Below, piece by piece: positions 3,748 to 49,320 of a stretch of DNA of 64,000 nt (the stretch's first letter is position 1; the number at the start of each line of letters is the position of its first letter). The stretch is from a virus. Lineage: Duplodnaviria; Caudoviricetes. Under the pieces are notes generated by a model. That model worked only from the letters and a program-made list of their open reading frames with translations. It was not told the origin of the DNA and did no database searches. The position numbers were made by a program, and so were the translations under genes. The stretch covers positions 1 to 64,000 of the IMG/VR virus record IMGVR_UViG_2974613666_000001; one strand, written 5' to 3'.

Positions 3748-4971
3748 ATGCAATTAGTAGAGAAGCACGTAATTAGGAAAAACCATATATTCTGGAAAGA
3801 GTGTGACCACTTATCTTTGCAGTCTAAGCACCTCTATAATTCTGCTACCTACATACAACGTCACTACTTCTTTGAAACAGGTAAGTATTATAACTCGATT
3901 GATGTTTACCATCAAACCAAAGATTTAGAAGCCTACAGATACCTACCTACAAAAGTTAGTAAACAGATTGTCCGTAGGGTTTCAGAAGCTTGGAAAGGTT
4001 GGCAGGCTGCTTTAAGAGATTGGTTTAAGCATCCTGAGAAGTATTTAAGTAAGCCGAAAATGCCTGGGTATAAGCACAAGGAACGTGGTAGAAACGTTGT
4101 AGTATACCCTATAGATTCTCTATCAAAACCAGCTTTAACCAAAGGTACTATCAAACTTTCTCAGACTAATATTGAGTTTCCCACTAAGGCTAGAAACATA
4201 AATCAAGCACGTATCGTTCCGAAGCTCGATCACTACGTTATTGAGGTTGTCTATACAGTAGATGATCCTGTATCTAGTACAGGTAAATACTCTGCTGGAA
4301 TAGACCTTGGCTTAAGCAATTTAATGGCTATAACATCAAATCATCCCGGTATAAGACCGCTTTTGATTAATGGTAGACCTTTAAAAAGTATTAACCAATT
4401 TTTCAATAAAAGAGTGGCTAAAGCACAATCCTTAGAAGCCTCGAAACAAGTTAAAGCACTTAATGGTAAGCGTGACAGAAGAATTGATAATTATCTCCAT
4501 ACTGCCAGTCGTAGAGTCGTTGATTGGTGTCAGTTAAATGAGATAAGTCAGTTGATAATCGGCAATAATGCAGGCTGGAAACAAGATATCAACATTGGTA
4601 AGAATAATAATCAATCCTTCACCAAAATTCCTCATGCTAAATTGATTCATCTTTTAACTTACAAAGCGGAGTTATCCGGTATTGAGGTTATAGTTACTGA
4701 GGAAAGCTATACTTCTAAGGCAAGTGCTTTAGATAACGATCCCTTACCAACTTATAAAGCTAAATCAGAATTTAAGCCTGTGTTTAGTGGTAAGAGGGTT
4801 AAAAGAAGGTTGTATAAAACTTCAGCAGGTCAGATCATTAACGCTGATACTAATGGAAGTTTGAATATAGCTAGAAAAGTAATTCCTAACTTTATGGAAG
4901 GAATAGAGGGATTGCCGTTTATCCCTGTAGTTTTAGGACTTTGGACTAAGATTACAAACTTAAATCACTAG
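3748..4971 (+). CDS. tnpB: IS607-associated TnpB RNA-guided nuclease
   Basis: MQLVEKHVI start, GIDLG (RuvC-I), EESYTSKAS, INADTNGS; directly follows the tnpA remnant. Confidence 0.92.
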   Translation: MQLVEKHVIRKNHIFWKECDHLSLQSKHLYNSATYIQRHYFFETGKYYNSIDVYHQTKDLEAYRYLPTKVSKQIVRRVSEAWKGWQAALRDWFKHPEKYLSKPKMPGYKHKERGRNVVVYPIDSLSKPALTKGTIKLSQTNIEFPTKARNINQARIVPKLDHYVIEVVYTVDDPVSSTGKYSAGIDLGLSNLMAITSNHPGIRPLLINGRPLKSINQFFNKRVAKAQSLEASKQVKALNGKRDRRIDNYLHTASRRVVDWCQLNEISQLIIGNNAGWKQDINIGKNNNQSFTKIPHAKLIHLLTYKAELSGIEVIVTEESYTSKASALDNDPLPTYKAKSEFKPVFSGKRVKRRLYKTSAGQIINADTNGSLNIARKVIPNFMEGIEGLPFIPVVLGLWTKITNLNH

Positions 4972-40837: not shown

Positions 40838-41027
40838 GGACTACAAGAGCTAAAAATAAGCTTAAGGGTCGTAGCCCTTGGGTATATTGATTTGAAAAGC
40901 TTACCTGACCCTCTCAGCCAACGTCAGGCGATCGTCTGAGGGGAAGCTTTTGTTTTTGTCATCGAGTTTTTCTGATTTCTCAGAGTTGCGTCAATACAGG
41001 TAGTCTGCGGGAATTGTCCCGGTTTTT
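40838..41027 (+). ncRNA. Candidate structured RNA with possible pseudoknot (5' end uncertain)
   Basis: Nested helices with plus-strand G.U pairs and a terminal hairpin followed by T5. Confidence 0.4.
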
Positions 41028-41029
41028 AA

Positions 41030-41753
41030 AATTTTGAGAATAGCTTTATACTTATCCGAAGTCTTCAGTAGTTCTTTTTTCACGCATCCCGGTCACAGGA
41101 GTTGGTACTCTGAAAGTTTCACCCTTTTATCCTAGTGGGTAACTTACTCTTACTCCTACCATCAGCAAGGTTCTTGAGTCGCCTGGTGAAATTCTTAGCT
41201 GGTGTCTTCTTAGCTCACTTATTGCGTCGTATTCCGCCTTCCGCTTACTTGACTTTATATACGAGAGTTCAAGTCCTCCACAGTTCGCTACACTGCTTTG
41301 TTTTGACCATTAACCAGAACTTCGTTTTATTACGGAGTTACGTTTCCGCATCAGCTTACAACCTTTTTCCTTTGGGCTAGTTTTACCGGGAACACCGCTA
41401 CCCCTCAGCTACTAAGAACTGCTATATAGTAACTTGACGCTACCCTAGCATATACTGCTTACCCTTCCAAGTTACACAGTCTTAGCACTTACTCATTCCC
41501 TCAAGGCTCCTATACTACCCATTCCTTGCAGAACTTCATACGTATCAGAGAGGTACTTGCCTGAGCATCTTTCTGGTTGCTCCGAGGTTATGCTCGGATT
41601 AGAATCTTGTTGACCTCTTTTATGAGGCTTTGCCTTACTCCCTACTCCCTGCCCTTCTAAAATAAATTAGATAGGTTGTGTTGTCGTGGTGGTTAGCATT
41701 CGCAAGATTAGCATCTGGTCACACTCGGCTTTACGCCGCAGGTATCAGATGCC
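41030..41753 (-). ncRNA. Large structured ncRNA, GOLLD-like
   Basis: No credible ORF; own sigma70 promoter; 5' stem GGCAUCUG/CAGAUGCU; many helices; 3' end GGAUGC..GAAAAAAGAA..GAAGAC..GCUAUUCUCA resembles the GOLLD 3' end as recalled. Confidence 0.6.
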
Positions 41754-41756
41754 TAA

Positions 41757-41786
41757 ATAATAGCACAGGATTTTGATATGAGTCAA
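41757..41786 (-). promoter_or_regulatory. sigma70-type promoter for the large ncRNA
   Basis: TTGACT-N18-TATTAT with an extended -10 TG. Confidence 0.7.
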
Positions 41787-41929
41787 ATGTTTTTTGTAAA
41801 TATTGCTTTGTCAGTTTTGTTTCGATCCTTATTAGGGATCGTGCCTTTGTTATAACTCCTATTTAGAAAATCAGGTAATACTGTTTCTGTTTCAATCCTT
41901 TATAGGGTTATAGCATTTTTATAGTTTAT

Positions 41930-43280
41930 TAAGTTTATAGTGGTCTAAAGCCCTACCATTTAAGATATACCATTTATTTTACAATTAATGTTGCTATTTT
42001 GTAAAATATCTAGTATACTTGAAGCAACAACATTAGCATCAGGTCGAAATGCTTAATCTTACTTACACCTACAAATTACAACCAACAGCGAAACAGATAG
42101 AAACCATAGAGCATAATCTCAACGTGTGTAAGTCTGTTTGGAACTATGCTCTATACGTCAGAAAGCTCTGGTACAATAGCCGTAGTTGTAAGATTAACCA
42201 ATGCTCTCTATTTCAGGAATATGTTGTTGAACCTTTTGAGTATCCTAACTACCATACTAAGTCTTCTGAATTAACACTTGCTAAAAAGACTAATCCTTTT
42301 CTTAAATCTGGTAATGCCCAAGCCATGCAGCAGACATTACGTAAGTTGGATAGAGCATTCAATGATATGAAGTCTAGAGGAATGGGGTTTCCTAGATACA
42401 AGAAAAAGATGAAGTCTTTTAATTTGTTAGGAGGTATATCAGTTCAAGGAAATATACTCAAGATGCCTCTACTTAAAGAGGTTAAGTTTAGAAAGTCAAG
42501 AGAAATTCCAGAAGGGTTCAAGGCTAAGCAAGTACAAATCATTAAAAAGGCAAGCGGTTACTACGCTAATTTAATGATAGAGCTTGATGTTAATGTTGCT
42601 AGTCCTACACCTCATGGTCATGCCTTGGGGATTGATGTAGGTATTCAAAACATGATAGCAACTTCCGACGGGTTGACGCTAAAAAGACCTAAGTTCCTAG
42701 ATAAAGCACTGCGTAAGATTAAATTACTACAAAGGAAGCTTAAAAAGAAAACTATTGGGTCTAATAACTGGAGAAGTCTGCAACATCGGATTGCTTTGTT
42801 ACATGAGGCTGTAGCAAATAGGCGTAAAGATTACCATTTTAAATTAGCTCACCAGTTGTGCGGAAATTCGGGAATGATATTTGTTGAAGATATTAACTTT
42901 GTAGCTTGGAGCAAAGGTTCATTTTCAAAACAGTCTCTAGATATGTGTCTAGGTCAATTCTTCAACATCCTTGAGTATGTCTGCTCTCAGACTGACACCT
43001 ACTTCAGTAAAGTAGATAAAAACTACACTTCTCAGATTTGCCCTAATTGTGGAACTCACACAGGTAAAAAAGACCTAAGTGTGAGGGTGCATAAATGTTC
43101 TGAATGTGGGTATGAGCGAGATAGAGACATAGCTGCTGCTGAAGTAATAAGAAATAGGGGTTTAGATAATATTGCGGTAGGAACTGCCGTGATTAAACAG
43201 TCCAGTAATGGCGTTCTAGCGGGGACTTCGGTCTAGTTAAGAGTCTAAATGGGAATCCCTTATCTTTAAGGGAAGTTCAA
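41930..43280 (+). mobile_element. IS200/IS605-family tnpB-only element
   Basis: Left end ...ggtctaaagccc after TTTAT; right end GAAT-hairpin-TCAA at 43253-43280; promoter TTGCTA-N17-TATACT (41991-42019). Confidence 0.8.
42049..43236 (+). CDS. tnpB: TnpB RNA-guided nuclease (intact RuvC D/E/D, Zn ribbon)
   Basis: TYTYKLQPT HTH, GIDVG, FVEDI, CPNC..CSEC, DRDIAAA. Confidence 0.93.
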   Translation: MLNLTYTYKLQPTAKQIETIEHNLNVCKSVWNYALYVRKLWYNSRSCKINQCSLFQEYVVEPFEYPNYHTKSSELTLAKKTNPFLKSGNAQAMQQTLRKLDRAFNDMKSRGMGFPRYKKKMKSFNLLGGISVQGNILKMPLLKEVKFRKSREIPEGFKAKQVQIIKKASGYYANLMIELDVNVASPTPHGHALGIDVGIQNMIATSDGLTLKRPKFLDKALRKIKLLQRKLKKKTIGSNNWRSLQHRIALLHEAVANRRKDYHFKLAHQLCGNSGMIFVEDINFVAWSKGSFSKQSLDMCLGQFFNILEYVCSQTDTYFSKVDKNYTSQICPNCGTHTGKKDLSVRVHKCSECGYERDRDIAAAEVIRNRGLDNIAVGTAVIKQSSNGVLAGTSV

Positions 43281-43380
43281 CCTAATGAGCTTCTTGCTTC
43301 TCCTTTCAGTTTCAATCACTGATAAGGGTTATAGAGTTTTTTCTGCCAAAACATATAAATTTCCGAAGATAAAATATAGT

Positions 43381-43895
43381 CTAGGTCAAATAATTGGCAC
43401 AAAGCTCAAAAGAAAGTGGCAAAATTGCATGAACATATTGCTAATACTAGAAAGGACTTTCATTGGAAAATAGCACATCAACTTTGTGATACTGCTCAAA
43501 CTATCTTTGTAGAAGATTTGAATTTAGTGGGATTGTCCAGGGGAATACTTGGCAAGCATTGTCTAGATGCTGGATGGGGACAATTCTTTGAAATTCTGGA
43601 GCAGTGTTGTTTTAAGCGTGGTGTATTTTTCCAGAAAGTAGATAGCCGAAAGACTTCTCAGATTTGCCCTAATTGTAGAATAGAAACGGGTAAAAAAGAG
43701 TTGTCACAGCGTGTTCATGTTTGTGAACATTGTGGCTATACAACTGATAGAGATGTTGCAGCCGCTCAAGTAGTTCTGATTAGAGGACTTGCAGCCGTCG
43801 GGCAGACGGTAAATATGCTTGCTGAGGGTAAATTCGTTGGAATCCCTGTGACGCAAGAATCCCCCCGGCTAGAAGCCGGGGGGAGTGTCAAGTGA
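43381..43895 (+). pseudogene. tnpB: 5'-truncated tnpB with its right end
   Basis: SNNWHKAQKKVAKLHEH...FVEDLN...CPNC..CEHC..DRDVAAA; right end gaatccccccggctagaagccgggggagtgtcaa. Confidence 0.88.
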
Positions 43896-48066: not shown

Positions 48067-49320
48067 ATGTTTGGATGTCAACAAAATCTAATTAATCCTG
48101 ACAAAGAAATAAAAGCGATACTTGAATTTCTTTGCAGTGAGTCCCAAAAACTAACTAATTGCGGGATCTATTATTCCCGGCAATTGTTTTTCAAGACTGG
48201 CAAAATCCCTAGTCGTGCTGATTTGCATAAAGAACTAGGTACAAGGAATTTAAACCCGCACTATCAGGCTTTTTACTCTGATACAGCACAACAAATCCTA
48301 ACTACCGTAGCTGAGTCGTTTAAGTCGTTTTTTGGATCACTCAAAGCCGTTAAAGCTGGTAAAGTAACCCAAAAACCTAAACTGCCAAAATACCGTAAAG
48401 GTGGTATGGCATTAGTGACTTATACAGGTCGTTCCGTAAAGCTTGAAAACGAATTACTGCGTTTCCCCCTTGGTTCTAAGGTTAGGGCGTGGTTTGGTAT
48501 TGACGCTTTTTATCTACCAATGCCATCAAACCTTGATCACAAATCAATCAGAGAATATCGGATATTGCCTAGAAATGGCTGCTTCTATCTTGAATTAGTC
48601 TATAAAACTGAACTAATTCAGGCAGAGGTTAATCCTAGCAATGCTTTGATGATTGATCATGGCATGAATAACTGGCTAACCTGTGTTAGCAATGTTGGCA
48701 CGAGTTTTATTGTTGATGGCAAGCATCTAAAATCTATCAATCAAGGTTATAACAAGCGTGTTGCGTCTTTGACGGAAGGAAAGGCTAACGGATATTGGAC
48801 TAAACGTTTAGCCAATATTACTGAAAAGCGTAACCGTACTATGCGAGATGCTATCAACAAAGCAGCCAGAAAAGTTGTTAGGCATTGCTTGGATAGCAAG
48901 ATTGGTACAATTATTTTTGGTTGGAATGTTGGGCAAAAAGACGGCGCTAATATGGGAGCGAAGACTAACCAAAAGTTTGTCCAGATTCCTACAGGTCGCC
49001 TTAAAGAAAGAATTAAACAACTGTGTGAGCAGTATGGCCTTCAGTTTGTAGAAACTGAAGAGTCATATACTTCCAAGGCTTCGTTTATTGATAGAGATTT
49101 TCTACCTACGTTCGGCGAAAAACCTGAAGGGTGGAAAGAATCTGGTAAGCGAGTTAAGCGTGGTTTGTACCGTACTGCTCAAGGCTATTTGATTAATGCA
49201 GACTGTAATGGCGCTGCAAATATGGGTAGAAAAAACGTAGCGGTGATGCTTGGACTAAATCTAAGCGGAATCAGTAGAGGCGATTTGTCAGCGCCTTTAA
49301 GACTTAAATTATGGTCTTAA
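48067..49320 (+). CDS. tnpB: TnpB RNA-guided nuclease
   Basis: MFGCQQNL start (ORF track gives 48037), MIDHG, EESYTSKAS, INADCNGA. Confidence 0.92.
   Translation: MFGCQQNLINPDKEIKAILEFLCSESQKLTNCGIYYSRQLFFKTGKIPSRADLHKELGTRNLNPHYQAFYSDTAQQILTTVAESFKSFFGSLKAVKAGKVTQKPKLPKYRKGGMALVTYTGRSVKLENELLRFPLGSKVRAWFGIDAFYLPMPSNLDHKSIREYRILPRNGCFYLELVYKTELIQAEVNPSNALMIDHGMNNWLTCVSNVGTSFIVDGKHLKSINQGYNKRVASLTEGKANGYWTKRLANITEKRNRTMRDAINKAARKVVRHCLDSKIGTIIFGWNVGQKDGANMGAKTNQKFVQIPTGRLKERIKQLCEQYGLQFVETEESYTSKASFIDRDFLPTFGEKPEGWKESGKRVKRGLYRTAQGYLINADCNGAANMGRKNVAVMLGLNLSGISRGDLSAPLRLKLWS

Follow-up and report, generated by a model that had tools for sequence, protein, structure and literature searches.

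The closest described counterpart of the locus reported here is found in cyanophage N-1, likewise a phage of filamentous Nostocales, which carries a short array without cas genes whose 37-nt repeats belong to the DR5 family and end in GGGATTGAAAC (Chenard et al. 2016, PMC4916379). The DR5 consensus for N-1 and its hosts ends in ...CCCTAT(T/C)AGGGATTGAAAC (PMC4916379), and the N-1 array, which has five well-conserved repeats near those of the host, is transcribed and cut by the Cas6 of Anabaena (PMC4916379; bioRxiv 10.1101/2020.04.14.041012). Viral solitary repeats can also act as RNA anti-CRISPRs (Racrs; Camara-Wilpert et al. 2023, PMC10651486); these are intergenic repeat mimics without cas genes, in which the part read by the Cas proteins is best kept, and the solitary candidates were called at an identity of at least 90% over at least 50% of a known repeat, with a host that has the same CRISPR subtype. 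The Baltic cyanophage vB_AphaS-CL131 of Aphanizomenon ('type V-U2', PMC6293099), has a tnpB gene by its array and no other cas gene. Its array (L156, MG209611 62037-62814) consists of 11 near-identical 36-nt repeats from another family, and the tnpB gene is about 250 nt away. Finally, tnpB elements of the ISDra2 type (IS200/IS605) insert 3' of a short motif without target duplication, and their omega-RNA runs from the tnpB 3' end up to the element's right end, with the flanking DNA as the guide.

We analysed a stretch of 64,000 nucleotides (hereafter, the window), positions 1 to 64,000 of a virus genome that is complete at 145.4 kb (IMG/VR record IMGVR_UViG_2974613666_000001). On either side of the locus, the sequence shares 92-99% identity with Nodularia phage vB_NspS-kac65v162 (MK605244), whose host is N. 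spumigena KAC65, and the assignment of the window to a phage is therefore sound. The locus contains three CRISPR-like repeats (R1, R2 and R3) and an insertion sequence (IS-A), and we think it somewhat better than an even chance that it is the relic of a DR5-family mini-array without cas genes, split by IS-A, in an IS hotspot of a Nodularia-type siphophage. As in N-1, the spacers have no known targets; unlike the N-1 array, this one has three repeats that are only 60-73% identical to one another, fail to match the Rfam DR5 model, lack the hairpin in two cases and are separated by an IS. The best-kept part of the repeats is the part read by Cas proteins, as in Racrs, whereas three copies at array spacing with 82% identity in the core fall outside the Racr criteria (PMC10651486), and the likely host species does not have a matching CRISPR type. 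In contrast to CL131, where tnpB lies beside the array, the tnpB of IS-A lies inside it and has its own ends and omega-RNA, with Cas6-type repeats on the opposite strand. IS-A is like the ISDra2-type elements in that it lies 3' of a short motif (TTTAT), has no target duplication and shows the same arrangement of the omega-RNA, but differs from them in having no tnpA, an apparently decayed left-end hairpin, and a CRISPR spacer in a phage as its target.

On the plus strand, R1 (41819-41855), R2 (41889-41925) and R3 (43309-43346) all start with GTTTC(A/G)ATC. Read on the minus strand, they end in ...GGAT(T/C)GAAAC, and the GAT(T/C)GAAAC ending given in the original prediction was correct for all three sites. 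The sites were compared with a 22-nt core, GTTTCAATCCCTAATAGGGATT, which was derived from real Nostocaceae arrays and covers the hairpin and the ATTGAAAC handle of CRISPR-DR5. Genuine arrays with this core, with a period of 71-73 nt, occur in 157 of the 201 sampled Nostocaceae genomes; in the host arrays to which the locus was compared, the period is 70-79 nt. R1 and R3, the latter a variant with a TGATA loop and a 1-nt insertion, match 18 of the 22 core positions each, and R2 matches 18 without a gap or 19 with one gap. When at most four mismatches to the core were allowed, exactly three sites (R1, R2 and R3, all on one strand) were present in the 145.4-kb phage genome; 50 Markov shuffles yielded none, and none is expected by chance. 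The similarity of R1-R3 to DR5 repeats is real, and their origin lies in the DR5 family of cyanobacteria. The resemblance of 36-38-nt repeats to cyanobacterial ones that had been noticed earlier holds for about the first 22 nt, but the distal 15 nt or so are unlike CRISPR repeats. Because the ends match those of the DR5 repeats of N-1 and its hosts (PMC4916379) as well as the orientation of CRISPR-DR5 in Rfam, the minus strand was taken as the crRNA sense. In this sense R1 ends in GGATCGAAAC, all three repeats have the 8-nt ATTGAAAC tag at their 3' ends, and a crRNA-like species from the minus strand would carry an 8-nt tag reading AUUGAAAC or AUCGAAAC. Neither Cas6 nor Cas1 was found anywhere in the 145.4-kb phage genome; the original prediction had noted that the window has no cas genes.

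R1 and R2 enclose spacer 1 (33 nt; 41856-41888, minus strand) and have a period of 70 nt. The 1.4-kb gap between R2 and R3 is filled by IS-A (41930-43280, plus strand), a tnpB-only element of the IS605 family that is 1351 bp long and whose ends were set by comparison with its relatives, and a fragment of a second tnpB lies beyond R3; the original prediction mentioned neither. When 41930-43280 was deleted in silico, the R2-R3 period was 69 nt (or 78 nt), so that the regular period and the spacers of about 30-40 nt expected of a CRISPR array were present once IS-A was removed. The restored period of 69 nt suggests that IS-A was inserted in spacer 2 of an array with three repeats and two spacers. 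The left stub of this spacer (41926-41929) ends in the motif TTTAT (41925-41929), the putative TAM of IS-A, and its right part (28 nt; 43281-43308) lies directly 3' of the conserved right end of the element. The empty-site junction and a 23-mer of R1 were absent from viral contigs, R1 was absent from metagenome contigs, the 15 hits of the R2/R3-type pattern in contigs are single, scattered and irrelevant, and look-ups via the neighbouring proteins gave just two alleles, with either an RNA ligase gene or the array and tnpB. Since these searches revealed no IS-free array, the insertion is argued from the anatomy of the locus.

The tnpB gene of IS-A (42049-43236, plus strand) encodes a protein of 395 amino acid residues, TnpB-A, which matches the Pfam models OrfB_IS605, Cas12f1-like TNB and HTH (E-values of 2e-20, 8e-18 and 1e-8). 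The D/E/D residues of RuvC and the zinc finger are present (motifs GIDVG, FVEDIN, CPNCG...CSECG and RDRD), and TnpB-A is intact as far as its sequence indicates. More than 30 relatives of IS-A, often multicopy, were found in cyanobacteria, with a protein identity of 72-85%. The homology to these relatives starts at about 41972 and stops at 43260-43280, and the right end ...GGGA(A/G)GTTCAA, which is invariant in 24 copies, is located at 43280 in IS-A. At the left end, TTTATC or TTATC abuts about 20 of the related copies; in the window, the sequence after TTTAT at 41925-41929 begins with TAAG..., which two relatives share, and an alternative TTTAT motif is located at 41934-41938. The last 190 nt of IS-A have a conserved fold, in which nine of the 31 pairs show compensatory changes, which marks this region as the scaffold of the omega-RNA, which ends in ...GGGAAGTTCAA at 43280. 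The first 16-20 nt or so of 43281-43308 are presumed, from their position, to be the guide of this omega-RNA. The left-end hairpin of the relatives, GACCCTCA..TGAGGGAT, reads GCCCTACCATTTAAGAT in IS-A with loss of the pairing, and thus appears to have decayed; no tnpA gene adjoins the element. Note that the left end also includes a palindromic promoter-like pair (41976-42007), in which TTTACA-N18-TAAAAT is found on both strands and the core motifs are invariant across the relatives. The copy on the minus strand would read outward over R2 and R1.

The region from 41794 to 43891 (2.1 kb) has no counterpart in vB_NspS-kac65v162, which has an RNA ligase gene in its place and no DR5-like site. The counterpart with the ligase gene corresponds to L003 4750-5605 and is also seen in L150. 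The 180 nt to the left of this variable island (41611-41793) are strongly diverged from the relative phage (75% identical or unalignable). Farther left, 40895-41786 is 92% identical to vB_NspS-kac65v162, where the small ORFs gp050-gp052 are annotated, and gave no Rfam match at the gathering score; the same scan of the whole window and a tRNA scan gave no matches either. The environmental contigs have the same two alleles, that is, the RNA ligase gene or the array with IS-A and the fragment of the second element, with no intermediates. At least 22 environmental contigs encode an identical TnpB-A, and in the ten that were examined, which come from several projects, R1-spacer 1-R2, IS-A and R3 are 99.8-100% identical with one SNP, in R1. 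This sole variant in the repeat region, C to T at the equivalent of 41840 (L147, Logan SRR29895363), shifts R1 toward the DR5 consensus GGGATT and breaks a compensated G-C pair. The locus is fixed and stably carried in a widely sampled phage population; because variation is near zero and the time depth shallow, selection on the locus cannot be read from these copies.

The second element, IS-B, remains as a fragment next to R3 (43384-43891, plus strand), which comprises the 3' 40% of a tnpB gene and the right end. The fragment shares 98.8% identity with part of a complete tnpB element (404 amino acid residues) in the Nostocaceae genome G157 (L136, G157:C1:496620-500126), which carries the CRISPR repeat of the N. 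spumigena type, and this similarity points to the host. The homology stops exactly at the right end of the IS, ...GGGGAGTGTCAA, and the corresponding point in the relative phage follows TTAT inside the RNA ligase gene. The high identity and the exact end at the IS terminus by the TTAT of the ligase gene suggest a very recent transposition from host to phage. In total, six matches to Cas12f1-like TNB were found in the phage genome, four in the window (4633-4869, 42952-43149, 43575-43769 and 48994-49224) and two beyond it (66696-66896 and 106013-106207), and five of the six are in open frames of 396-448 amino acid residues. This load of IS605-family elements is unusually high for a siphophage of the lytic type, and the island around the array is a landing zone, or hotspot, for IS elements.

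From these arrangements we infer the following order of events. The original array would have had three repeats, two spacers of about 33 nt and a period of 70 nt, would have had no cas genes and would have been read as crRNA from the minus strand; its repeats would belong to the DR5 family, the repeat of type I-D/III systems that is processed by Cas6 and ends in ATTGAAAC. IS-A would then have inserted behind a TTTAT at the beginning of spacer 2, and the remainder of the spacer, now directly 3' of the omega-RNA, would by default act as its guide. Together with this omega-RNA, TnpB would cut copies of the array that are free of the IS and would thereby drive the copying of IS-A into them (homing). 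The host-derived IS-B probably transposed into the adjoining RNA ligase gene, and a later deletion or rearrangement may have removed the 5' 60% of IS-B, so that only its 3' part remains by R3.

Near-identity is expected of repeats within one array, and the intact phage arrays have it (CL131, 11 copies; N-1, five; PMC4916379). R1-R3 fall short of this, with matches at 23-27 of 37-38 positions (60-73% identity) between pairs, the most similar pair being R2 and R3 (27/38). Compared with the host repeats, they match at 21-27 positions over 37-38 nt (57-71%), and at 82% within the 22-nt core. The divergence is uneven: of the 27 positions that the 9-nt handle block GTTTC(A/G)ATC takes up in the three repeats, 26 agree with the consensus, a figure to be read in the light of R1-R3 having been found via this same handle motif, whereas the core outside the block is about 60-75% conserved (9-10 of 13 positions per repeat). 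The well-kept handle hints at a constraint, past or present, on the part read by the Cas proteins.

The predicted folding in the crRNA sense also differed among the repeats. R1 has the stem-loop before the tag (-7.7 kcal/mol, compared with about -8 for host repeats), in R2 it is weak (-1.8 kcal/mol), and in R3 it is absent (0.0 kcal/mol). The compensated CGATCC/GGATCG stem of R1 in the original prediction was right, with one compensated base pair, but the statement that the repeats keep a hairpin applies, in the crRNA sense, to R1 and not to R2 and R3. On the plus strand, which is favoured via G-U pairs, R1 and R2 fold with -9.5 and -7.4 kcal/mol. In searches against Rfam, R1 and R3 had no hit, and none of the three repeats hit CRISPR-DR5 (RF01318) at E <= 10. 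The match of R2 to CRISPR-DR10 on the minus strand (17.4 bits, E = 1.4) is below the cut-off of 39, whereas host repeats score 52.3 bits against CRISPR-DR5, which is over the cut-off of 40. With drift of this extent, the array has most likely ceased to be a CRISPR substrate, and R1 at most could still bind a Cas6.

It is possible, although we consider it unlikely, that the array still functions, with RNAs from the minus strand bound by host Cas6 or effectors (type I-D or III) and acting either as Racr-like decoys or as a mini-array against competitors; any such remaining role would chiefly concern R1. The handle read by the Cas proteins is near-perfect in all three repeats, the compensated hairpin of R1 is stable and of host strength, and the processed array of N-1 and the Racrs of other viruses are precedents for such roles. 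However, the identity to host repeats, overall and in the core, is below the 90% level of the Racr candidates and the Rfam thresholds, the hairpin in the crRNA sense is missing in R2 and R3, and 1.35 kb of antisense IS interrupts the array. Promoter-like sites face R3 (43400-43373) and, from the left end of the IS, R2 and R1 (42005-41976), but the promoter scan gave six sites against a mean of 7.5 in shuffled sequences, that is, fewer than expected by chance.

Spacers of a CRISPR array are expected to match mobile elements, but no protospacers were found. For spacer 1, the best site in the own genome has 11-12 mismatches, the collection of 50,697 phage records gave only matches with E >= 0.1, and 389 Nostocaceae genomes contain none at three or fewer mismatches. 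Likewise, for spacer 2 none was found in the own genome, the 50,697 phage records or five Nodularia-like genomes. The search for targets of spacer 1 and the reconstructed spacer 2 that the original prediction had proposed was thus without success.

The CRISPR repeats of the hosts bear on a functional array in both directions. In published arrays of N. spumigena the repeat is another one, ...CCCCTAACGGGGATGGAAAC, and belongs to type III-B (PMC5853447). Among the genomes with the exact N. spumigena repeat, G157, G189 and G201 have no DR5 arrays, and G230, G232, G135 and G048 have many. Co-occurrence of DR5 arrays with the Nodularia-type repeat in these latter four is in favour of function, but the published N. 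spumigena strains and G157, the donor of IS-B, carry only the other repeat family. The likely host species uses a repeat family other than DR5, and the lack of DR5 arrays in the N. spumigena-type genomes G157, G189 and G201 is a further difference from the Racrs. A comparison with host repeats had been suggested earlier; the repeats in the window turned out to be similar to those of the host's family and unlike those of the host species. Together with the negative protospacer searches, this gives a mixed outcome under the refuting condition of the original prediction. The original proposal that the array may work with Cas proteins borrowed from the host is not upheld, given the diverged repeats, the failure to match Rfam DR5, the loss of the hairpin in two of the three repeats, the split by the IS, the lack of protospacers, and the other repeat family in N. 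spumigena (PMC5853447).

A bolder version, which we regard as improbable, is that the divergent repeats are kept on purpose as a battery of RNAs that bind Cas6 or effectors, directed against the DR5-type I-D/III systems of some Nodularia. The divergence would then avoid recombination, the left end of the IS would serve as an outward promoter for R2 and R1, and homing by TnpB would police the array in co-infecting siblings.

It is similarly doubtful that the repeats were never a phage array and represent a decayed orphan array of a host, captured together with IS-A as one piece of host chromosome. DNA did flow from host to phage at the same spot, as the 98.8% identity to G157 shows, arrays of cyanobacteria tend to fragment and become orphans (10.1101/2020.04.14.041012), and the locus is missing in the relative phage. 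However, no donor was found: among 5.8 billion proteins there is none closer to IS-A, the next best TnpB-A being 85% identical; neither IS-A nor the repeats occur in five Nodularia-like genomes; and viral and metagenome contigs contain neither the 23-mer of R1 nor repeats of the R2/R3 type beyond single hits by chance.

That R2 and R3 are no CRISPR repeats but terminal hairpins of IS-A recognised by TnpA is very hard to credit: they are direct repeats on the same strand flanking tnpB and the most similar pair, and subterminal hairpins of a similar kind, on one strand, are indeed present at IS200/IS605 ends, but the more than 30 relatives have hairpins of their own (left, GACCCTCA...TGAGGGAT; right, CCCTCG...CGAnGGGAGGTTCAA), the homology to them begins after R2 and ends 28 nt short of R3, and R1 sits 70 nt further out in the same period. 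This candidate was rejected, as the conserved ends of the relatives differ and none has the GTTTCAATC motif. A type V-like transition, in which tnpB would use the repeats, was also rejected, because the repeats, which are of the Cas6 type, lie on the opposite strand, and because the omega-RNA needs nothing from them to be complete. The array of CL131 may also be an ordinary tnpB element by a host-type array, with no dedicated effector.

With the relic of a split DR5-family mini-array as our preferred reading, the phage would be another cyanophage with CRISPR repeat material, after N-1 and CL131. The locus would provide an anatomically clear case in which a TnpB element has entered a CRISPR spacer and the remnant of the spacer has turned into the guide of an omega-RNA, and IS-B, at the same spot, records a very recent transfer of an IS from host to phage (98.8% identity). 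The case shows that motifs resembling CRISPR repeats may persist in phages as relics, and that a tnpB gene by repeats need not mean type V. If R1-R3 did still bind Cas proteins, which the evidence disfavours, RNA anti-CRISPRs would extend to bloom-forming cyanobacteria.
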